Positions 3,743 through 46,573 of a stretch of DNA of 64,000 nucleotides are shown one piece after another (position 1 is the first letter of the stretch; each line of letters starts with the position of its first letter). The notes beneath the pieces were generated by a model that made no database searches, had not been told where the DNA came from, and saw nothing but the letters and a program-made list of their open reading frames with translations. Source of the DNA: Deltaproteobacteria bacterium (GTDB lineage: Bacteria; Desulfobacterota; RBG-13-43-22); the NCBI GenBank assembly GCA_016219225.1, contig JACRBX010000047.1, forward strand, positions 3,846-67,845, in the 5' to 3' direction. Position numbers and translations under genes: made by a program.

Positions 3743-4536
3743 TGGAAGGAAGGCCCATGGTACTTGGTAAAAAAGTAGTCGTAGTTATGCCGGCTTATAA
3801 TGCCGCGCAGACCTTAGAGAAAACCTATAGTGAGATGCCTCATGAAGTAGTGGATGATGTGATTTTAGTCGATGATTTCAGTCATGATCGGACGACTGAA
3901 TTGGCCCGGTCTTTGGGGATCAAAGTTTTTCTCCATGAGAGTAACTATGGGTATGGAAGAAACCAAAAAACTTGCTATGCCGAGGCGTTGAAAGTGGATG
4001 CCGATATCATTGTTATGCTCCATCCGGATTATCAATATACACCCAGGCTGGTTCTACCTATGGCTGCTATGATTGCCGGAGGGGAATATGATGTGGTTTT
4101 AGCCTCCCGGATCATTGGTGGGGGCGCCTTAAGTGGGGGAATGCCCTATTATAAATATATTTTTAATCGCTTTCTTACCGCTTTCCAAAACCTATTGATG
4201 GGTTCAAAACTCTCTGAATTTCATACCGGCTATCGGGCTTTTTCACGGAAGGTTTTGGAAACACTTCCTCTATTGGAAAATTCAGATGATTTTGTTTTTG
4301 ATAACCAGATGTTGGCCCAAACCTTGATTTTCGGATTTAAGATCGGAGAACTCTCCTGTCCGACCAAATATTTCCCCGAAGCCTCATCGATTAATTTTTG
4401 GAGAAGTTCTCGATATGGGATCGGGGTAATCCTGACCAGCCTGACGTTTCGGCTGCAAAAATTGCGATTCGTGCACTCCCGGTTATTTAGCTCCAAAGGC
4501 CAACGTTTGGGGGAAGGTTATTATAAAAAATATTAA
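3742..4536 (+). CDS. glycosyltransferase family 2, polyprenyl-phosphate sugar synthase-like (DPM1/ArnC-like)
   Basis: VVVMPAYNAAQTL...VILVDDFSHDRT GT2 nucleotide-binding and DxD region; start overlaps upstream stop (TAATG). Confidence 0.7.
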   Translation: MEGRPMVLGKKVVVVMPAYNAAQTLEKTYSEMPHEVVDDVILVDDFSHDRTTELARSLGIKVFLHESNYGYGRNQKTCYAEALKVDADIIVMLHPDYQYTPRLVLPMAAMIAGGEYDVVLASRIIGGGALSGGMPYYKYIFNRFLTAFQNLLMGSKLSEFHTGYRAFSRKVLETLPLLENSDDFVFDNQMLAQTLIFGFKIGELSCPTKYFPEASSINFWRSSRYGIGVILTSLTFRLQKLRFVHSRLFSSKGQRLGEGYYKKY

Positions 4537-13868: not shown

Positions 13869-14981
13869 ATGGCAACTGAAATTTCTAAAGAAGCCCGTAT
13901 TTATGTGGCCGGGCATGGCGGGCTGGTGGGTTCGGCCGTCCTCCGCCGATTAAGGCAGGAAGGCTTTTCCAATATTTTGACCGCCACCAGGGAACAATTG
14001 GATCTGCGGGATCAGGCGGCGGTCAATTACTGGTTCCGGGCCAACCGGCCGGAATTTGTTTTTCTGGTGGCCGGAACGGTCGGGGGGATCCTGGCCAATG
14101 CCACCCGGCCGGCGGAATTCATCTATGACAACATGATGATCCATGCTACCGTGGTCCATGCGGCCTATATTTTTAAGGTCAATAAACTCCTTTATCTGGG
14201 CAGCTCCTGTATCTACCCCCGGGAATGCCCCCAGCCCATTAAGGAGGAATATCTCCTGACTGATGTGCTTGAACCGACCAATGAAGCCTATGCCATTGCC
14301 AAGATCGCCGGGATTAAACTCTGTCAGGCTTACCACCGCCAGTACGGCTGCAATTTTATTTCCGGTATGCCGACCAATCTATACGGCCCTCATGACAATT
14401 TCGATTTACAGAGTTCCCATGTGCTCCCGGCCCTGATTCGGAAATTTCATCTGGCCAAATTAGCCGCTCAGGGGAAATGGGAAGAAATTGAAGCCGACGA
14501 AAAGATATTCGGTCCCCTGCCGGAAGACTTGCGCCTTTCCCTGGGACTTTCCAATCGGATCCGGCCACTGGCCGGCGGCACACCGCAATCGGTGATTATC
14601 TGGGGTTCCGGGGCCCCCAGACGGGAGTTCCTTTATGTGGATGACCTGGCCGATGCCTGCCTATTTATTATGCGCCACTATGAACCTTATCTCGAACCTG
14701 GGCCTATAGTCCAAAGGAATGTAATCGACCATCTCAACATCGGAACCGGCGTGGACCAGACCATTCGGGAACTGGCCGAAGCCGTGCAAAAGATCGTCTA
14801 TCCGGAGGCCAACCTGATCTTTGATCACACCAAACCGGATGGGACCCCCCAGAAGCTATTGGATATCTGTAAATTGAAAGATTTGCAGTGGCGTCCCAGG
14901 ATCGGTTTGGAAGAAGGGATTGCCCAAACCTATGACTGGTATGTCAAAGAAACCGAAAGATTAAGAGGGCAGGGGGGATAA
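13869..14981 (+). CDS. fcl: GDP-L-fucose synthase (GDP-4-keto-6-deoxy-D-mannose 3,5-epimerase/4-reductase)
   Basis: Strong similarity to E. coli Fcl throughout ([61 protein letters not shown]); contains an internal ~40-aa insertion. Confidence 0.85.
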
Positions 14982-15000: not shown

Positions 15001-15195
15001 GAAATTTCGTATCAGTTTAGCTTTTGGAAAACGGCGATAACCCCTCTGTCATTCCGGTGAAAACCGGAATCCAGGTGTTATGTTGAGACGAAAAGAACCT
15101 GGATTCCGGTTTTCACCGGAATGACGTTTGAGAAAGTCAGGATTTTCATGTAAAAGTTTCAAGTTTTTCAAAAGGCTAAATTGTTACGAAATTTC
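15001..15195. repeat. MITE-like palindromic element, copy 1 (terminal inverted repeats plus a 27-bp perfect inner inverted repeat)
   Basis: The ends gaaatttcgtatcagtttagc and gctaaattgttacgaaatttc are inverted; the core cattccggtgaaaaccggaatccaggt is mirrored around a 22-nt spacer; second copy near 19.0-19.2 kb. Confidence 0.7.
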
Positions 15196-15217
15196 TCTGT
15201 TTTTCGTTTTTAGGAGT

Positions 15218-15260
15218 AACCAGCATCCAGCATCCAGTAACGAGTAACCAGTAACCCGCA
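15218..15260. repeat. 7-nt-period tandem repeat array (CCAGCAT / CCAGTAA units)
   Basis: ccagcatccagcatccagtaacgagtaaccagtaacc read directly. Confidence 0.7.
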
Positions 15261-17213
15261 TCAAATATCCGTTCTCATTTTCTGGAGAACAATAACCAGG
15301 ACCACCAATCCCAGACCGATGGCATCATAAAGCCACGAAGAATAAACCAGCATCAAGCCGCCGGCGGCCAGGAAAATACGTTCCATCCCATTGGCCCTTT
15401 TTAAAAACCAGGCATCCACGCCACCGGCCAGGGCGGCAATGCCGATCATGGAAGTGAAGGAGGTCCAGAGGATCTTGGGCCAGGGGCCGGACAAAAGCAG
15501 GCCGACCCCATCGGGATGCAAGGTGAACATGAATGGGACGATGAAGGCCGGCAGGGTGTATTTCCAGGCCATCATGGTGGTTTTAAAAGGGTTCCCACCG
15601 GTCAGGGCCGCCGCGGCAAAGGGGGAGAGGGCCGTGGGCGGAGAAACTTCGGATAAAACGGCATAGTAGAAAATAAACATGTGGGCCGCATAATCCGGAA
15701 CCTTGAGCATGATCAGGGCCGGGGCGGCAATAACCGCGCCGATGATATAAGAGGCTGTTACCGGGACCGCCAGACCGATAACCCACATCAATATCCCCGT
15801 AAATACACAAGTCAGGAATAAATTACCTCCGGCATAGCTGATGACGATAGAACTGAATTTCAGCCCCAATCCGGTCAGGGTCACCACCCCGACAATGATG
15901 CCGGCGCTGGCGCAGGTGGCGGCCACCCCTAATACGCCGATAGAACCGGATCGCAGGGCGGCAATTAATTTTTTGGGTTTTAAGGCCGTTTCGGATCTGA
16001 AAAAGCTCACCCCAAAGGCGATCAGGGTGGCATAAAAGACCCCCATAATGGGCGTAAAACCCACGACCATCAGGACCACGATGGCAATCAAAGAGGTAAA
16101 ATGAAACCAATAGCGCCAGGTTAATTGCTTTAGGCTATAGGTCTCATCGATGGAGACTCGTTGGGCGCCGAATTTTTTGGCGTCAAACTCGACCATCAGA
16201 AAGATGGATAAGTAATAGAGGAGGGTGGGCATTACCGCCATACGCAGGACATCGAGGTAGGAGATTTTTAAAATCTCGGCAATCAGAAAGGCGGCCGCTC
16301 CCAGGACCGGCGGCGAAATGATGGCCCCTATCCCCCCGGCCGAAAGCAATCCACCGGCCGATTCCTTGTCATATCCGGCTTTGGCCAGCATGGGATAGGC
16401 CACAGATCCCAAGGTAACGGTCGTAGCCACCCCGCTGCCCGAAGGCCCACCTAAAAGAAAGGAGGCTAAAGTCACGGTCCGGCCGGCACCGGTAGGTTTC
16501 CGGCCCATAGCGGCAAAGGAAAAATCGATAAAGAATTTACCGGCCCCGGAATATTCCAGAAAGGCTCCATAAATGGTAAATAGAATTATAAAGGTGGCGG
16601 AGACATCGATCGGGACGCCAAAGATCCCTTCCAGGGTCATATACATGTGGCCGACGATGCGTTCCACATCATAGCCGCGATGGGTCCAGGGGGACGGCAA
16701 TTGAGGGCCCATATAGGCATAGATCAAAAAAAGAATACTGATAAAGGGCATAATCCAGCCGGTGGCCCGTCGGACGACCTCCAGGACCAGCAAGATAAAA
16801 ATGATCCCAAAGGCCTTATCCCAGAAAGTGGGTGTCACCGCCCGGTAGATGAATTCTTCAAAGTCAACTAACATATAGACGATGGTGGCTACTCCCAGGA
16901 AGGCCAGACCGATGTCATACCAGGCGATGCGATTTTTTAGTCTTTTTAAGGGGGGAAAGACCAGGAAGCCTAAAAAGAAGACAAAAGCTACATGTACTCC
17001 CCGAAGGATCTGGGTGGTCACCGTCCCCACCGCGGCATAGAGGTGATATAGGGACATGGCTACGGCCATAATAGTGATAAAGGTTTCGAAAGGTCCCGAA
17101 AGCCTTCGGGTGACCCCTTCTTCTTCTTCAATATATTTTTCTGCTTCCTTTATCCGCTCTTCATTGATCAAAGGTTCCGAAGATTCCTGGTCCCCTCTTG
17201 GTTCTGAATCCAT
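15261..17213 (-). CDS. TRAP transporter fused permease subunit (TAXI-type DctQ/DctM fusion)
   Basis: 650 aa, ~16 TM helices; operon with a DUF1850 protein and a TAXI binding protein. Confidence 0.8.
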   Translation of the reverse strand: MDSEPRGDQESSEPLINEERIKEAEKYIEEEEGVTRRLSGPFETFITIMAVAMSLYHLYAAVGTVTTQILRGVHVAFVFFLGFLVFPPLKRLKNRIAWYDIGLAFLGVATIVYMLVDFEEFIYRAVTPTFWDKAFGIIFILLVLEVVRRATGWIMPFISILFLIYAYMGPQLPSPWTHRGYDVERIVGHMYMTLEGIFGVPIDVSATFIILFTIYGAFLEYSGAGKFFIDFSFAAMGRKPTGAGRTVTLASFLLGGPSGSGVATTVTLGSVAYPMLAKAGYDKESAGGLLSAGGIGAIISPPVLGAAAFLIAEILKISYLDVLRMAVMPTLLYYLSIFLMVEFDAKKFGAQRVSIDETYSLKQLTWRYWFHFTSLIAIVVLMVVGFTPIMGVFYATLIAFGVSFFRSETALKPKKLIAALRSGSIGVLGVAATCASAGIIVGVVTLTGLGLKFSSIVISYAGGNLFLTCVFTGILMWVIGLAVPVTASYIIGAVIAAPALIMLKVPDYAAHMFIFYYAVLSEVSPPTALSPFAAAALTGGNPFKTTMMAWKYTLPAFIVPFMFTLHPDGVGLLLSGPWPKILWTSFTSMIGIAALAGGVDAWFLKRANGMERIFLAAGGLMLVYSSWLYDAIGLGLVVLVIVLQKMRTDI

Positions 17214-17264
17214 AGATCATCCTTTTTCCCCTGATACTCTCCGGGAAGTTCATAGTATAGGAAT

Positions 17265-17723
17265 TTAATGGGTTCGTATTTCTATCAGAGTGCCTTCCGG
17301 CAATAAGGTGGATAGGGATATTTTTTCTGTTCCCCATTCTAACCGGACTTCCCCGATAGGAGATATCAGCATCGGGATCTTGCCGATTTTTCTGGAGAGC
17401 CTGACCCAGTCAGAGGTAGATTCTTCAAGGCCATAATATTCCAGGACCGCCGGGCTGCCGGTTTTTATCCTGTCCAGCCAGATTGAACCTTCTGAATCGA
17501 TTAAAAAAGCTTCCCAAACCCAGGTGTCGTAAATCGAATTGCGATGAATCAGGAAGAACTGATCCCCCGGGATAATCGGTCTTTCCCAATAGACCCGGCC
17601 GGCATCCCTTAATACCACTTGAAGCAAAGTGGTCGTGTGAGCTGGTAAAGGCAACAGGACCCACAACAGGATCAGGAGAATGGCCGGCAGGCGTTTTTTT
17701 CTTTTTCGATCCCTGGGTTCCAT
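17265..17723 (-). CDS. DUF1850 domain protein (TAXI-TRAP associated)
   Basis: 152 aa, N-terminal TM helix; position between the TAXI binding protein and the fused permease is typical. Confidence 0.6.
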   Translation of the reverse strand: MEPRDRKRKKRLPAILLILLWVLLPLPAHTTTLLQVVLRDAGRVYWERPIIPGDQFFLIHRNSIYDTWVWEAFLIDSEGSIWLDRIKTGSPAVLEYYGLEESTSDWVRLSRKIGKIPMLISPIGEVRLEWGTEKISLSTLLPEGTLIEIRTH

Positions 17724-17868
17724 TAGGCGCTTAGTACCGATACCTCGACAAAGTTTTGTTGATCAAGGGGCGAACTTCCTCATTTTGCTTCGTCGGTGCC
17801 CACGTCAGGTGGGTATGATGGTTTAACACGCCAATATGAATAATAAATATCGAATTATGAATTTTTTT

Positions 17869-17932
17869 CCTTCCTTCGATATTCATTATTCGATATTTGA
17901 TATTTTCATGTTTCGTAGTGCCCCATAGTGGC
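17869..17932. repeat. Repeat related to the hdrL leader repeat (acgaaacatgaaaat ... atcgaat motif), inverted orientation
   Basis: The reverse complement matches 41325-41385 (cacgaaacatgaaaatNNgaatatcgaat..atgaatatcgaagga). Confidence 0.55.
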
Positions 17933-17944
17933 AAGAGGGGTTTG

Positions 17945-18937
17945 TTAGATTTTTGCCCCTTTTTCCTTATAATACTTGACCGCTCCCGGATGGTAAGGAA
18001 TAGGGGTGCCATGCACCGCCCCTTCCAGGGTCAGGTGGTTGGCCTCTTTATGAACGGCCACCAGTTCCGGTTTATGGGCAAACAAGGTTTTTAAGATATT
18101 ATAAGCCAGGGCGGCATCCAGTTTTTCATGGCAGATCAAGATATTGGCGACGGCGGCCACATGGGTGTCCGAAGCAATTCCAGGGTAGGTGTTTTTGGGG
18201 ATGTTTCCTTTGAAATAGACCGGTCCGTATTTGGCCACCATTTTGGCTACACCATCCTCGTGGCCGATCAGTTTAATTTTGATCCCCGGCGTAGCGGCGA
18301 TATCCAGGATGGAAGCGGTCGGCAGCCCTCCGTCCCAGAAATAGGCATCGATCTTATTATCTTTCAAGGCCCCGGCCGATTCGCTGGCCCCCAGCCGATC
18401 CCGGGTAATATCCTTGTCGGGATTAATACCATAAGCCTCCAAAACCCGTAAGGCCTTAACTTCCGTCCCTGATCCCGGGGCACCGGTCGATATTTTTTTC
18501 CCTTTCAGGTCGGAGACTTTATTGATGCCTTTTCCATCCAAGGCCACGACATGCATAAAGTTGGAATAGAGTACGGCCAGATTGCGGATGGGGAGTTTAT
18601 CCTTGAATTTCCCGGTCCCCATATAGGCATCATAAGCCACATCACCCATGACAAAACCCAGATCGGCCTTTTGGGCGGCCACCAATTTGCAGTTGTCCAC
18701 CGAGGCGGCGGTGACTTCGGCCGTTACCTCCACCCCAGGCAAATATTTGGTCAGGACTGCGGCCATCCCTCCCCCATAGGGGTAATAGACCCCCCCGGTC
18801 CCCCCGGTAACGACGGATAGCCGGACTTTGGTTTGGGCTAAAACCTGGTCCGGGGAATAAATCAGGATTCCCAATCCGACAGCACTGGAAATTTTTAGAA
18901 AATCCCTGCGATTCAAATAATGACTTTTCCTCTCCAT
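17945..18937 (-). CDS. TAXI family TRAP transporter solute-binding subunit (Tat signal)
   Basis: N-terminal RRDFLK twin-arginine motif; TAXI/Imp-like periplasmic binding protein pattern. Confidence 0.8.
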   Translation of the reverse strand: MERKSHYLNRRDFLKISSAVGLGILIYSPDQVLAQTKVRLSVVTGGTGGVYYPYGGGMAAVLTKYLPGVEVTAEVTAASVDNCKLVAAQKADLGFVMGDVAYDAYMGTGKFKDKLPIRNLAVLYSNFMHVVALDGKGINKVSDLKGKKISTGAPGSGTEVKALRVLEAYGINPDKDITRDRLGASESAGALKDNKIDAYFWDGGLPTASILDIAATPGIKIKLIGHEDGVAKMVAKYGPVYFKGNIPKNTYPGIASDTHVAAVANILICHEKLDAALAYNILKTLFAHKPELVAVHKEANHLTLEGAVHGTPIPYHPGAVKYYKEKGAKI

Positions 18938-19018
18938 AAGTAGCCTCCTAAAATAGTTATGCGTTGATCGGGATTATTCCCTTATTTCAAACCATCTAAC
19001 CGGCCAAACTTTAAAAAA

Positions 19019-19240
19019 TTGTTATCAGTTTAGCCTTTTGAAAAATTAGAAGCTTTTACTTGAAAATTCTGACCTGCTTGCCCCGTCATTCCGGATTCCG
19101 TCCCGGAGGGACTACACCCCGGAGGGTGAAAACGGGAATCCAGATGTCATGCTGAGCCGAAAAGAACCTGGATTCCCGTTTTCACGGGAATGACGAAGAG
19201 GTTATCGGCGTTTTTTAAAAAGTAAAACTGATACGATCAA
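19019..19240. repeat. MITE-like palindromic element, copy 2 (inverted relative to copy 1, with a ~30-nt insertion in the core)
   Basis: The arms ttgttatcagtttagccttttgaaaa and gttatcggcgttttttaaaaagtaaaactgatacgatc match the copy-1 arms in reverse orientation; core gtcattcc...ggaatgacg. Confidence 0.7.
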
Positions 19241-20856
19241 TGCACCTTTTTATCATATTTATCCCAGAAGGGATCACGCAAACCCTTTTTATAGAGTTTT
19301 CCTGATCCGGTCCGGGGTAAATGATCGAGAAAGGTTATCGACTTCGGGGCCTTATAATGGGCCAGGTTTGTTTTACAAAACCGGATAATTTCCTCCTCGG
19401 AGGCTTGTTGTCCTTCTTTCAATACCACGGCGGCGTGCACGGCTTCCCCCCATTTTGCATCCGGGACACCGAAGACCGCGGCCTCAAGGGTCTTGGGAAA
19501 CTGGTATAAGATATTTTCCACTTCAGTGGAATAGACATTTTCTCCTCCGGTCAAGATCATATCCTTTTTCCGGTCGACGATATTCACATACCCCTCTCCA
19601 TCGATGACCGCCAGGTCCCCGGTATGAAGCCAGCCGTTTTGGATGGCCTTTTCGGTTTCTTCCGGCAGCTTCCAATAACCCTTGGTGATCGTGTCCCCCC
19701 GGACAATAATTTCACCCACCTCCTGATCATCCGGCCGGACCTCTTCCCCGTTCTCCCGGACTACCTTCAGAGAAACGCCGATAAAGGCCCTGCCGGTCTT
19801 GGCCTTGTAGACGAATTGTTCTTCAGGGGGCAATTGTTTCAGATGTCCCTTCAATAGGGAAAGGGTCAGATAGGGGCTGGTTTCCGTCATGCCGTAGGTC
19901 TGAATGTAATCGCAGCCGAACCCCTGCATAATTTTCCGAACCACCTCCGGGGCGATGGGTGCCCCGCCGCTTAACAACACCCGAAGATCCGGGAAGATAT
20001 AGCCCGAAAAATCCGGATGATGGATCAGCAGATTCAACATGGTGGGGATCATGTTGGAAATCGTCACCTTTTCCCGGACCATGGACTCCAGAACCGCTTT
20101 GGGTTCAAATTCCCTAACCAGAACATGGGTGCCGCCCACCCAGGTAATGGCCCAGGTGGCCCAGGCATCGGCCAGATGGAAAAGGGGAGCCACATGGATC
20201 CAGACGTCGGAATCCGTCAACTGCAGTTCGGCAATAGTCCCCAGGGCATGGAGGTAGCCATTTTTGTGGCTCAGCATGACCCCCTTGGGTCTCCCGGTCG
20301 TTCCGCTGGTGTAATAAATCTGGGCCGTAGCCTCATCACCGGGTCCCCAATCCTGGAGCGGGTCTGAAGAGGATGTCCTTAACGCCTCTTCGTAATCTAA
20401 CCCTCGAGACCGGGTCTGGTCATTTGGATCCACCCAGAGGGTGGTTTTAAGCGAAGGGGTTAAAGACCCAAGGCCTTCGATCTTAGGGAAAAAATCAGAA
20501 TGGGCGATTAATAATCGGGATTCCGAATCCTTGAGAATAAATTCTATTTCCCGGGTGGATAAACGATAATTGAGGGGGACGAGAATGGCTCCGATCAGGG
20601 CGGTGGCAAAATAGGCCTCCAGAAAAACATGACAGTTGTAATGCAAAATGGCCACCGCCCGGCCCGGTCCCAATCCCTGGGCTTTCAGAAAATGGGCCAG
20701 CCGACCGATCCGTTCAAAAAACTGTTCATAGCTCCAAGTTGCCTGATGGCAGCGAATAGCCTCTTTTTGAGGATAGGCCCGGGCCGCTTTAAATAAAAGT
20801 TCGGCTAAGTGAATGGAAACCCCTCCTTTCTCAATTCCGCTTATGGTACTTTCCAA
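19237..20856 (-). CDS. AMP-dependent acyl-CoA synthetase/ligase
   Basis: YTSGTTGRPKGV AMP-binding motif; C-terminal GKLYKKGLRD. Confidence 0.85.
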   Translation of the reverse strand: MESTISGIEKGGVSIHLAELLFKAARAYPQKEAIRCHQATWSYEQFFERIGRLAHFLKAQGLGPGRAVAILHYNCHVFLEAYFATALIGAILVPLNYRLSTREIEFILKDSESRLLIAHSDFFPKIEGLGSLTPSLKTTLWVDPNDQTRSRGLDYEEALRTSSSDPLQDWGPGDEATAQIYYTSGTTGRPKGVMLSHKNGYLHALGTIAELQLTDSDVWIHVAPLFHLADAWATWAITWVGGTHVLVREFEPKAVLESMVREKVTISNMIPTMLNLLIHHPDFSGYIFPDLRVLLSGGAPIAPEVVRKIMQGFGCDYIQTYGMTETSPYLTLSLLKGHLKQLPPEEQFVYKAKTGRAFIGVSLKVVRENGEEVRPDDQEVGEIIVRGDTITKGYWKLPEETEKAIQNGWLHTGDLAVIDGEGYVNIVDRKKDMILTGGENVYSTEVENILYQFPKTLEAAVFGVPDAKWGEAVHAAVVLKEGQQASEEEIIRFCKTNLAHYKAPKSITFLDHLPRTGSGKLYKKGLRDPFWDKYDKKVH

Positions 20857-46156: not shown

Positions 46157-46573
46157 ATGTTTGAATCATTCGAACCTAAAATCATTGCCATGGTCTGTAC
46201 CTATTGTACCTATACGGCGGCTGATATGGCCGGGTCCATGAGATTGCAATATCCCTGGAATGTGCGGATTGTCAAATATCTTTGTACCGGCAAGATCGAT
46301 ATTCAGCACATCTTGAAAGTCTTTGAAAAAGGGGCTGATGCCATCCTGGTCGGCGGCTGAGAAATCGGCGACTGCCATTTCCTGGAAGGAAATCTAAGAG
46401 CCAAAGAACGAGTGGAATATGCTAAAGAACTGTTGAAAGAAATCGGTCTGGAACCCGGGCGACTCGAGATGTTCCACATCGGGGCCTCCGATGCTCCGGC
46501 CTGGGCCAAAGCCGTGACGGAGATGACCAACAGGGCCAGGGATCTGGGGGCGAACCCACTTAAAAGATATTAG
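46157..46573 (+). CDS. mvhD: MvhD-like [2Fe-2S] hydrogenase delta-subunit homolog, selenocysteine-containing (in-frame UGA at 46358-46360)
   Basis: The ORF stops at TGA in GADAILVGG-TGA-EIGDCHF, exactly where MvhD has the conserved Cys of G-C-x-x-GDCHY; translation continues in frame for 70 more codons with the conserved MvhD C-terminus (GNLRAKERVEYAKELLKEIGLEPGRLE) to TAG 46571-46573; hairpin atttcc-tggaa-ggaaat at 46377-46393. Confidence 0.7.

Follow-up and report, generated by a model that had tools for sequence, protein, structure and literature searches.

The REP, BIME and REPIN repeats of enterobacteria and pseudomonads are inverted hairpin doublets that form mosaics with other motifs and go together with RAYT transposases. 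Repeats of the REP type are intergenic and in many cases intercistronic; they are able to stabilise or attenuate mRNA. The NIMEs, reportedly described by Parkhill et al. in 2000, are said to be mosaic intergenic repeats that contain dRS3 and are linked to recombination. Ssn is a family of small single-domain GIY-YIG nucleases of about 94 amino acid residues (Chenal et al. 2025, PMC11893778). The SRMs are the sites where Ssn binds and cleaves ssDNA; the GTC 5' of the palindrome is required for cutting, the C immediately 3' of it is required for binding, and cleavage occurs 5' of the motif, at a distance of a few nucleotides (PMC11893778). In Neisseria, where the dRS3 hairpins are known targets of phage recombinases, the action of Ssn at the NTS reduces the recombination of incoming DNA (PMC11893778). 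SRM repeats are also present in Wolbachia pipientis and are cleaved there by its own Ssn, and the analogy of SRMs to REP-type repeats was made in the same paper (PMC11893778).

The window analysed here is the whole stretch of 64 kb, and its host is a Thermodesulfobacteriota-type MAG. It contains two related palindromic elements in opposite orientation, copy 1 (15001-15195) and copy 2 (about 18987-19238). Both are intergenic, and when each element was compared with the whole window by blastn no third copy was found, which gives 2 elements in 64 kb. Each element has at its core two NTS/SRM hairpins in inverted arrangement, one per strand. The elements are new members of the known class of mosaic hairpin repeats. 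The two copies are likely to represent a small family of mosaic palindromic repeats with a central SRM pair, which were acquired separately and are not the ends of a cassette.

Table 1. Features of the two elements and of the neighbouring genes (positions in the window)
Feature	Position	Strand	Remarks
NAD-dependent epimerase/dehydratase (fcl-like)	13869..14981	+	convergent with the permease
Copy 1, composite palindromic element	15001..15195	+	fold, inverted-repeat and alignment data
Copy 1, outer inverted arm A	15001..15031	.	pairs with 15165-15195; 31 nt, 87% complementary
Copy 1, SRM/NTS-type hairpin TGTCATTCCGGTGAAAACCGGAATCCAG	15047..15074	+	matches the published SRM pattern
Copy 1, loop separating the two SRMs	15075..15098	.	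24 nt; flipped relative to the arms compared with copy 2 and L076
Copy 1, SRM CGTCATTCCGGTGAAAACCGGAATCCAG on the opposite strand	15099..15126	-	pattern, hairpin fold, NTS comparison
Copy 1, outer inverted arm B	15165..15195	.	contains the motif TATCAGTTTAGCYTTTKGAAAA
Fused TRAP permease, DctM domain	15261..17213	-	Pfam DctM, 2.7e-70
152-aa ORF	17265..17723	-	no Pfam match; position usual for the small TAXI-TRAP accessory gene
TAXI-family TRAP solute-binding protein	17945..18937	-	NMT1_3, 1.5e-79
Copy 2, insertion unit	18987..19238	-	252 nt; single clean gap against L122; ends ambiguous by ~5 nt
Copy 2, second SRM arm	19085..19143	+	broken by the 32-nt insertion; SRM pattern lost
Copy 2, intact SRM CGTCATTCCCGTGAAAACGGGAATCCAG	19168..19195	-	pattern match; ssDNA hairpin
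AMP-binding acyl-CoA ligase	19237..20856	-	opens the module that is conserved in relatives

On the + strand, copy 1 consists of outer arm A, spacer A, the SRM pair, spacer B and outer arm B. In copy 2 the palindromic part extends from 19015 to 19236 and the A-to-B order runs on the - strand; the flanks of the two copies could be aligned in inverted orientation only, with 81% identity. The orientation of an element is set by the two different spacers, A and B. Across the family the outer inverted arms have 25-31 nt, and the terminal motif TATCAGTTTAGCYTTTKGAAAA occurred 4 times where 0 occurrences were expected. The inner stem of copy 1 (15048-15076 / 15097-15125) is perfect over 29 bp, and in copy 2 one inner arm is interrupted by an insertion of 32 nt at about 19095-19126. 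The predicted folds had -93 kcal/mol for copy 1 (z = -11.6) and -78 kcal/mol for copy 2 (z = -5.7), so that the palindromes are far beyond chance. An earlier note on this DNA had described two inverted palindromic copies at essentially these positions, in agreement with the repeat, alignment and fold data. Its coordinates hold for copy 1, but the palindrome of copy 2 had been placed at 19019-19240; the perfect inner inverted repeat exists but had been given 27 instead of 29 bp, and the core insertion in copy 2, taken as about 30 nt, was confirmed. The note did not mention the flipped central loop of copy 1, which is identical to the loops of copy 2 and of a copy in another genome (L076) at 8-9/24 positions in the same orientation and at 20/24 when flipped.

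The hairpins follow the scheme (C/T)GTC-ATTCC-[stem-loop]-GGAAT-CCAG. With the published degenerate SRM pattern HGTCWYN(0-2)YYVSBRHN(0-5)WNVSBRGN(0-2)RNCYNB, 3 matches were found in the 64-kb window, none of them outside the two elements, compared with an average of 0.35, and never more than 2, over 100 dinucleotide shuffles. Folded as ssDNA, each of the three intact arms gives a stem of 8 bp closed by a GAAA loop, with energies between -7.8 and -9.1 kcal/mol and z between -3.3 and -4.4 (-4.4 for 15047..15074), and no significant hairpin was obtained for the broken arm of copy 2 (z = -0.9). Compared with the Neisseria NTS consensus, the arm at 15047..15074 matches at 23/28 positions; the deviations are T in place of C at position 1, within the 5' flank, and two stem pairs with compensatory changes. 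The - strand arms match at 24-26/28 positions, again with compensatory differences in the stem; in 19168..19195 (26/28) the two mismatches make up one such pair. The compensatory pairs sit at positions 10-19 and 12-17. All three intact arms keep the GTC 5' and the C 3' of the palindrome. Ends of this kind also recur in the Wolbachia hairpin WsnRNA46, to which Rfam gives a match below its threshold. Within the elements GTCATTCC points outward and CCAG inward, an arrangement like that of the SRM-ssn-SRM unit, but with the 24-nt loop in place of the ssn gene. It is copy 2, the younger copy, that already has one SRM arm broken.

The NTS and SRMs of Chenal et al. share with the hairpins here the 28-nt motif GTC + ATTCC(C)-stem-loop-(G)GGAAT + CCAG, the intergenic position on both sides of genes, and the same polarity as around ssn. 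In contrast, the SRMs here form a tight inverted pair within a longer palindrome with arms and spacers of its own, the host is a Thermodesulfobacteriota-type MAG, and an ssn gene is not in view. The entire 252-bp element as an inserted unit does not appear in the description of Chenal et al. (PMC11893778). A search with an HMM made from real GIY-YIG proteins (120 sequences of about 95 residues, 93-151 aa) detected no Ssn-like GIY-YIG gene in the window or in the fetched loci of the lineage (best E 2.5). In Desulfococcus, NTS-like hairpins with the polarity seen here lie on either side of a real Ssn-like gene. Loci with the same hairpin pair number at least 120 and are spread over many phyla. 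Elsewhere, 18 of 74 SRM pairs are embedded in a longer palindrome, more than the 99th percentile of the control. Like the NIMEs, where dRS3 reads ATTCCC-N8-GGGAAT, the elements are mosaic intergenic repeats with a dRS3/NTS hairpin and are clustered around particular genes. However, in NIMEs dRS3 flanks RS units of 50-150 bp, whereas the hairpins here are central and other sequences lie outside; the outer sequences of NIMEs show no similarity to the elements.

Three ORFs lie between the copies, coding for the TAXI binding protein, a protein of 152 residues and the fused DctM permease. Copy 1 is located between the stop codons of the convergent fcl-like gene and the permease gene, and the A end of copy 2 is about 3 nt from the ligase stop codon. 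The TAXI protein and the fused permease had been named correctly in the earlier note, but the label DUF1850 for the small ORF is unconfirmed, because Pfam gave nothing for this ORF with a cutoff as lenient as E <= 10. In relatives an ORF of 155-156 codons, also without a Pfam hit, occupies the equivalent place.

The history of the two copies was followed in related genomes. In the close relative L122 the gene order is the same and the TAXI protein is 96% identical. Copy 1 is present there at the orthologous site with 99% identity, but copy 2 is absent, and the alignment shows one clean gap of 252 bp that spans the entire element. Copy 2 is also missing from four further related contigs (L123, L150, L151 and L152), and the relatives have a spacer of 46 bp at this site. 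The empty site reads CATTAATCA|GGGAAT and the filled site CATTGATCG[...]GAAATAA|GGGAAT. At this junction, the single one with an empty site, neither a TA nor another clear target duplication was found; the only candidate is an imperfect overlap of 5 nt. The insertion runs about 28-33 nt beyond the B-side inverted arm, and therefore the inverted arms are probably not the termini. The alignments indicate that copy 1 is older than the split from L122, that copy 2 is a lineage-specific insertion of 252 bp without a clear target duplication, and that the two copies were acquired independently.

Within 20 kb, L122 also carries a further SRM element, an unrelated one of outer arms and an SRM pair in its TAXI-small ORF spacer. 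A third full-length copy with the same arms was found in L076, where the element is opposite to the direction of transcription; with it included, the orientation relative to transcription is not constant. In core, loop and B arm, copy 2 is more similar to L076 than to copy 1, and by this sequence comparison copy 1 and copy 2 belong to different subfamilies. The full-length copy in L076 and the gap that comprises all of copy 2 suggest that members of the family move as whole units. A search with an exact 21-mer of the B arm gave no additional copies in the metagenome collection or in viral contigs, and blastn of the whole copy 1 found no match in plasmids or phages.

It had been proposed that the inverted copies act jointly, like a composite transposon, and mobilised the TAXI-TRAP genes as a MITE-flanked cassette of 4 kb. 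Exactly three transporter ORFs are indeed bracketed by the two copies. However, the synteny of the fcl/TRAP/ligase region gives the cassette no support: L122 holds the operon with copy 1 in place and lacks copy 2, the other four contigs lack copy 2 as well, and the copies come from different subfamilies. In the more distant genomes L127 and L128 the module is found in other neighbourhoods and begins with the ligase, which is outside the bracket, and neither end carries an SRM or element. The conserved unit in these genomes comprises ligase, TAXI protein, small ORF and permease, and copy 2 is thus internal to it, occupying a short intercistronic spacer of the module. Since the copies were acquired independently and copy 2 was inserted within the module, the elements neither delimit nor mobilise the transporter genes, and a cassette is hardly credible. 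As a composite transposon or mobile cassette, the copies and genes would be gained and lost jointly; this fails in L122, L127 and L128 and is refuted in practice.

The idea of a MITE-like, non-coding palindromic repeat family was borne out by the L076 copy and by the polymorphism of copy 2 among close relatives. A classical MITE in the strict sense, i.e. a deletion derivative of an IS with a DDE transposase (IS630/Tc1, IS5 or similar) that moves by cut-and-paste through its TIRs with the SRM as a passenger, is nevertheless quite improbable. The elements resemble the Correia element and the IS630-derived MITEs in their size of about 200-250 bp, their non-coding nature, the outer inverted arms, the presence or absence of copy 2 between strains and the occurrence of copies in two genomes. 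On the other hand, the one resolvable junction has no clear target duplication, TA included, the arms do not seem to coincide with the ends of the insertion, the plasmids, phages and viral contigs contained no related sequence, and the 64-kb window encodes no transposase, Y1 and IS110 families included. These results, and a core that is an Ssn-related hairpin motif, speak against the IS630 or IS5 type driver suggested in the earlier note, the interpretation of which is thus partly supported. We know of no parent IS for the elements. Somewhat less improbable, but still unlikely, is a REPIN-like doublet that is moved by a RAYT (IS200/IS605-like), or the target or by-product of an IS110-type recombinase, without any connection to Ssn. 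The two short hairpin repeats in inverted order and the duplication-free insertion next to a small hairpin resemble REPINs and IS200/IS605 biology, and the dRS3 hairpins of Neisseria offer a recombinase parallel. Yet the repeat sequence differs, and the arms conform to the SRM/NTS consensus, including the flanks that Ssn needs, and not to the GTAG-type head of REPs. Across phyla there is a statistical association of SRMs with ssn genes; the protein family is GIY-YIG and not the HUH Y1 transposases of the REP systems, and the window has no Y1 or IS110 gene. A main role at the RNA level, as bidirectional terminator, mRNA-stabilising hairpin or WsnRNA46-like small RNA with an incidental likeness to Ssn sites, has about as little in its favour as the classical MITE, or slightly less. 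The folds are very stable, all three copies have T-runs after the B arm, copy 1 has convergent genes on its two sides, and a promoter-like TTGAAA-18-GAAAAT of weak consensus is conserved in the B arm and directed into the hairpin. The match to the Wolbachia small RNA WsnRNA46 (Rfam RF02625) extends to a long hairpin with arms that begin with GTCAT and end with GGATCCAG, but its 37.3 bits are well under the gathering threshold of 65.3, the arm interiors differ, and the elements here are known from DNA sequence. Moreover, promoter-like sites are not more numerous than in shuffles, the element is dispensable because relatives have the 46-bp spacer in place of copy 2, and the L076 copy is opposite to transcription. 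The exact conservation of the flanks critical for Ssn would be left unexplained.

For the separately acquired mosaic repeats with an SRM pair, we infer the mode of movement and the effect on the expression of the operon as follows. The element would be non-autonomous and the whole unit would be moved or copied by a function encoded elsewhere. A cognate Ssn, which is assumed, would be the only known protein partner of the core. Since Ssn cuts 5' of the motif and this falls within the element, excision or insertion at the outer ends is not explained by Ssn. As RNA, the very stable hairpin in the ligase-TAXI transcript probably changes read-through or mRNA stability, for which the RNA-level effects of the REP/BIME elements serve as a model. 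When the region becomes single-stranded during uptake, conjugation or replication, either strand would carry sites for Ssn both to the left and to the right of the operon. If these sites are active, the precedent of Neisseria suggests that the recombination of incoming DNA would be reduced.

The two palindromic elements beside the transporter operon were compared by alignment, blastn, folding and ORF analysis. Copy 1 has outer inverted arms of 31 nt that are 87% complementary and a perfect inner stem enclosing a 20-nt loop. Copy 2 aligned with it in the inverted orientation only, at 81% identity, and one of its inner arms is interrupted by a 32-nt insertion. The terminal motif occurred four times, with none expected. 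The folds of copy 1 (-93 kcal/mol, z = -11.6) and copy 2 (-78 kcal/mol, z = -5.7) were both far more stable than those of shuffled sequences, and when either element was searched by blastn through the whole window, no further copy came up. Three ORFs lie between them, encoding the TAXI binding protein, a protein of 152 residues and the fused DctM permease. The earlier note was therefore right that two inverted palindromic copies bracket three genes, and also that there is a perfect inner inverted repeat, which in copy 1 measured 29 bp and not 27 bp. Its naming of the small ORF as DUF1850 was not confirmed, since the 152-aa ORF had no Pfam match even at E <= 10.

Coordinates of the elements, their parts and the neighbouring features
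Feature	Sequence	Coordinates	Strand
Copy 1	window	15001-15195	
Copy 1 inner stem arms	window	15048-15076 / 15097-15125	
Copy 1 loop (24 nt)	window	15075-15098	
SRM-pattern match, copy 1	window	15047-15074	+
SRM-pattern match, copy 1	window	15099-15126	-
SRM-pattern match, copy 2	window	19168-19195	-
Copy 2 palindromic part	window	19015-19236	
Copy 2 32-nt insertion	window	19095-19126	
Copy 2 loop	window	19144-19167	
Gap in L122 (boundaries ambiguous by 5 nt)	window	~18987-19238	
Loop of third copy	L076	5371-5394	
Promoter-like site, copy 1 B arm	window	15142-15171	-
Promoter-like site, copy 2 B arm	window	19038-19067	+
Heptamer array	window	15215-15256	
Heptamer array	L122	13004-13066	
Permease stop codon	window	15261-15263	
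TAXI-small ORF spacer	window	17724-17944	
TAXI-small ORF spacer	L122	10110-10550	
NTSvar-like hairpin, degenerate	window	17795-17820	-
AT-rich inverted repeat	window	17839-17904	
Ligase-TAXI spacer (299 bp)	window	18938-19236	
Ligase-TAXI spacer	L122	9069-9116	
Ligase-TAXI spacer	L150	597-661	
Ligase-TAXI spacer	L151	227-323	
FlpD/MvhD-like ORF	window	46157-46558	
In-frame TGA of this ORF	window	46358-46360	
Ligase-TAXI pair with two small ORFs	L124-L126	10001-11700	
Region of the GIY-YIG gene, hsdR and hsdM	L147	3671-5932	
Insertion inside SRM mini-hairpin	L147	~4300-4335	

Each arm of the inner stem contains a small palindrome with oriented flanks, reading (C/T)GTC-ATTCCGG-TGAAAA-CCGGAAT-CCAG in copy 1 and CGTC-ATTCCCG-TGAAAA-CGGGAAT-CCAG in copy 2. 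In Neisseria, the extended dRS3 repeat 'NTS' is CGTCATTCCCGCGMAVGCGGGAATCYRG, which has been generalised to the 'Ssn-related motifs' or SRM (Chenal et al. 2025, PMC11893778). When the window was scanned with the degenerate SRM pattern published there, three matches were found, all of them inside the two elements, against an expectation of 0.35 for the window from shuffles. The fourth SRM arm, in copy 2, is the one that the 32-nt insertion disrupts. Set against the Neisseria NTS consensus, the intact copy 2 arm differed at 2 of 28 positions and the minus strand arm of copy 1 at 4 of 28; the plus strand arm of copy 1 had the same four differences and, in the 5' flank, a T for C at position 1 (5/28). 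All stem differences were compensatory (pairs 10-19 and 12-17). The GTC 5' and the C 3' of the palindrome, which are critical for cutting and binding (PMC11893778), were retained in the window arms. For each intact arm, folding as ssDNA gave a hairpin with a stem of 8 bp closed by a GAAA loop (z = -3.3 to -4.4), and the broken arm yielded no such hairpin. Rfam gave only a sub-threshold match (37 bits, threshold 65) to WsnRNA46, a Wolbachia hairpin with ends of a like kind to the window elements; the SRMs of Wolbachia are cut by the local Ssn (PMC11893778). At the level of sequence and predicted fold, the core of the element is identified as the SRM/NTS motif.

The nuclease Ssn (94 aa, family cd10448) consists of a single GIY-YIG domain; it binds and cuts SRM hairpins, in ssDNA only and on one strand only. 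Across phyla, SRMs show a statistical association with ssn genes; they cluster around genes, and in N. meningitidis an NTS-gene-NTS layout lowers transformation by such DNA (all from PMC11893778). To see whether the lineage has the partner gene family, a GIY-YIG consensus was used solely as bait, and real PF01541 proteins of about 95 aa were recovered in their thousands. The gene of one of them, in the Desulfococcus locus L147, lies between two NTS-like hairpins whose GTCATTCC points outward and whose CCAG points inward, and this is the polarity of the window pairs. Because of the shared polarity, a window pair resembles an SRM-ssn-SRM unit in which the 24-nt loop replaces the gene. The 95-aa Ssn-like gene itself stands between hsdR and hsdM in a type I restriction-modification operon. 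The SRM downstream of it contains, inside its mini-hairpin, an insertion comparable to that of copy 2, which lies inside a mini-hairpin and contains CCCGGAGGG twice; nesting of a hairpin within a hairpin seems to recur.

No Ssn-like ORF was detected in the window or any fetched locus by six-frame search with an HMM of 120 real GIY-YIG proteins (best E 2.5). Likewise, two regular-expression searches for the GIY-YIG motif gave no Ssn-like ORF and returned unrelated matches only, one in locus L045 and two in L022 and L044. When every sizeable ORF of the window was annotated with Pfam, the only functions seen were polysaccharide synthesis, transport and energy metabolism, and no transposase or recombinase turned up. 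A candidate mobilising enzyme is absent from the window. The FlpD/MvhD-like ORF has an in-frame TGA in the context GG-TGA-EIGDCH, after which the frame continues; this is probably a selenocysteine codon and not the mark of a broken gene.

Through homologues of the TAXI protein, the source was identified as a 'Deltaproteobacteria bacterium' MAG, and contigs of its relatives were obtained. The closest relative, L122, has a TAXI protein 96% identical to that of the window and the same gene order (branched-chain ABC transporter, oxoprolinase-like genes, ligase, TAXI, small ORF, permease, epimerase, glycosyltransferase). Copy 1 was present there at the same site with 99% identity, whereas copy 2 was absent and the ligase-TAXI spacer was 46 bp. 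The two sequences differ here by one clean gap of 252 nt that begins about 3 nt past the stop codon of the ligase, and the inserted sequence extends ~28-33 nt past the B-side inverted arm. No clear target duplication was seen at the junction, only an imperfect 5-nt overlap. The empty site, CATTAATCA/GGGAATAATCCCGATC, is a small imperfect hairpin. Copy 2 was also missing from the relatives L123, L150, L151 and L152, in which the spacer measured 46, 65, 97 and 46 bp, respectively. Since the relatives lack it, its absence is ancestral and copy 2 is an insertion in the window lineage. The comparison shows that the two copies were acquired independently and that the whole unit was inserted without clear duplication.

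The earlier note had likened the layout to a composite, MITE-flanked cassette that could reflect past mobilisation of the operon, as the bracketing of exactly these genes may suggest. The synteny comparison it called for found the operon in place in L122 with copy 1 and without copy 2, so the two are not jointly present or absent. In the more distant relatives L127 and L128-L130, ligase, TAXI, small ORF and permease form a tight module with spacers of 41 and 136 bp. The neighbourhoods of this module are of three different kinds, and no SRM was found in these loci. As the module includes the ligase, copy 2 lies inside it and not at its edge. Because the elements do not travel with the transporter genes, the cassette was rejected. 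A repeated, MITE-like element was nevertheless correctly recognised, as the insertion polymorphism of copy 2 and a third copy in another genome show.

Among the relatives, the site directly behind the ligase stop codon is a hotspot of indels, the spacer measuring 46, 65, 97 or 299 bp. At the same point L151 carries 32 additional nt with TCGT at either end, which could represent the footprint of an excision or a further small insertion; this is suggestive only. In one group of relatives, L124-L126, two small ORFs come after the ligase-TAXI pair and the DctM permease is missing; this TAXI, 84% identical, is an orphan binding protein or the remnant of a decayed transporter.

The third full-length copy was found in L076, from the Thermodesulfobacteriota MAG CAZVHO01. 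It shares the outer arms of the window copies and includes both spacers, the SRM pair and the loop. Copy 2 was closer to it than to copy 1 in the intact SRM arm (27/27 against 25/27), the loop (22/24 against 20/24) and the B arm (63/73 against 55/70). Hence neither window copy is a recent duplicate of the other. With the asymmetric arms as reference, the loop of copy 1 runs the opposite way to those of copy 2 and L076: its identity was 8-9/24 as found and 20/24 when flipped. The L122 orthologue shares this inversion, and such a flip is what recombination or template switching between the perfect 29-bp inverted repeats would be expected to leave. Scans of viral contigs gave no match to the loop/stem junction or the B arm, and blastn against plasmids and phages none to copy 1. 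In a metagenome collection, a 21-mer common to the B arm of all three copies hit 15 loci, all chance matches in unrelated coding sequences. Judged from these alignments, the composite element is a family whose whole unit moves together.

Other repeats are found nearby. A 7-bp tandem array (AGTAACC/GCATCCA on the plus, GGTTACT on the minus strand) extends across the permease stop codon and just downstream of it, adjoining copy 1. With 6 units in the window and 9 in L122, it is a variable-number repeat. The spacer between TAXI and the small ORF could not be aligned with that of L122, although the flanking genes are ~96% identical. In the window it contains an inverted repeat rich in A and T, and also a degenerate NTSvar-like hairpin, CATCATACCCACCTGACGTGGGCACC. 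In L122 it has a 294-bp palindrome unrelated to copies 1 and 2, whose 59-nt arms enclose an SRM pair and are partly heptamer arrays similar to the one beside copy 1; the composite architecture is seen again in it. Counting copies 1 and 2 and this spacer, there are three independent hairpin-repeat events within ~4 kb.

Species-representative genomes were scanned with the hairpin-pair pattern GTCATTCC-N8-14-GGAATCCAG-N8-38-CTGGATTCC, and the SRM pair was found in at least 120 loci. The matches listed include Bacteroidota, several classes of Pseudomonadota, Nitrospirota, Chloroflexota, Planctomycetota, Patescibacteria and others. Among them the mini-stem sequence varied with pairing kept, and the two arms of a pair often had different mini-hairpins; the conserved unit is therefore the single SRM per strand and not the long hairpin. 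In 18 of 74 pairs elsewhere among the matches listed, the inverted complementarity of the flanks exceeded the 99th percentile of a between-locus control. About a quarter of the listed pairs in other phyla (L002-L121) thus lay inside a longer palindrome. Several listed contigs (for example L016, L034 and L075) end exactly at SRM pairs, as expected because multi-copy repeats break assemblies.

The element would be non-autonomous and rely on a function encoded elsewhere. To our knowledge, Ssn is the only protein that recognises its core. The Ssn cut falls a few nucleotides 5' of the motif (PMC11893778), within the element and inside its spacers; cutting at the element ends was therefore rejected, and Ssn cutting alone would not explain movement of the 252-bp unit. 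It is conceivable, but in our view unlikely, that SRM-pair composites are active mobile DNA, transpose as ssDNA hairpins without target duplication, preferably into or beside other small hairpins, and depend on the Ssn nuclease for their spread. Candidate cases of hairpin targeting are the GGGA-ATAA-TCCC hairpin after the ligase stop, the insertions within SRM mini-hairpins and the SRM pairs nested in longer palindromes. If this were true, Ssn would be the enzyme behind a new class of transposable element in bacteria, one based on GIY-YIG, and the locus would be a natural before-and-after pair for it.

Each pair carries an SRM on both strands. Whichever strand of the region became single-stranded would thus be cut to either side of the transporter genes, and cutting of this kind reduces recombination of incoming DNA in Neisseria (PMC11893778). 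As RNA, copy 2 would be a hairpin of ~-78 kcal/mol, followed by a U-run, in the intercistronic spacer (46 bp in relatives), and by analogy with REP/BIME elements it should alter read-through or the stability of the upstream message. A terminator orientation in which A to B follows the upstream gene fits both window copies and was rejected because it fails in L076. The B arm has a promoter-like site, TTGAAA-18-GAAAAT, reading inward through the SRM hairpin in all three copies (in L076 by eye). The scan for such sites was overall not above shuffles, and on this weak evidence the sigma-70-like site could drive a small hairpin transcript.

In conclusion, motif content adds the two elements as new members to a known class, the SRM/NTS-containing mosaic hairpin repeats; they are closest in kind to the NIMEs of Neisseria and to BIME/REPINs. 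The attractive but mistaken idea of a transporter cassette gives way to a documented, pan-bacterial class of Ssn-motif hairpins described in 2025. The available part of PMC11893778 does not mention the motif pair as the core of a longer, oriented palindromic unit, the gain or loss of the whole unit between close strains without clear target duplication, or the flipping of the central loop. The useful addition is the matched filled and empty site inside an operon, in the window and L122, which offers a practical start for studying how such repeats spread and how they affect expression and recombination of the adjacent genes.
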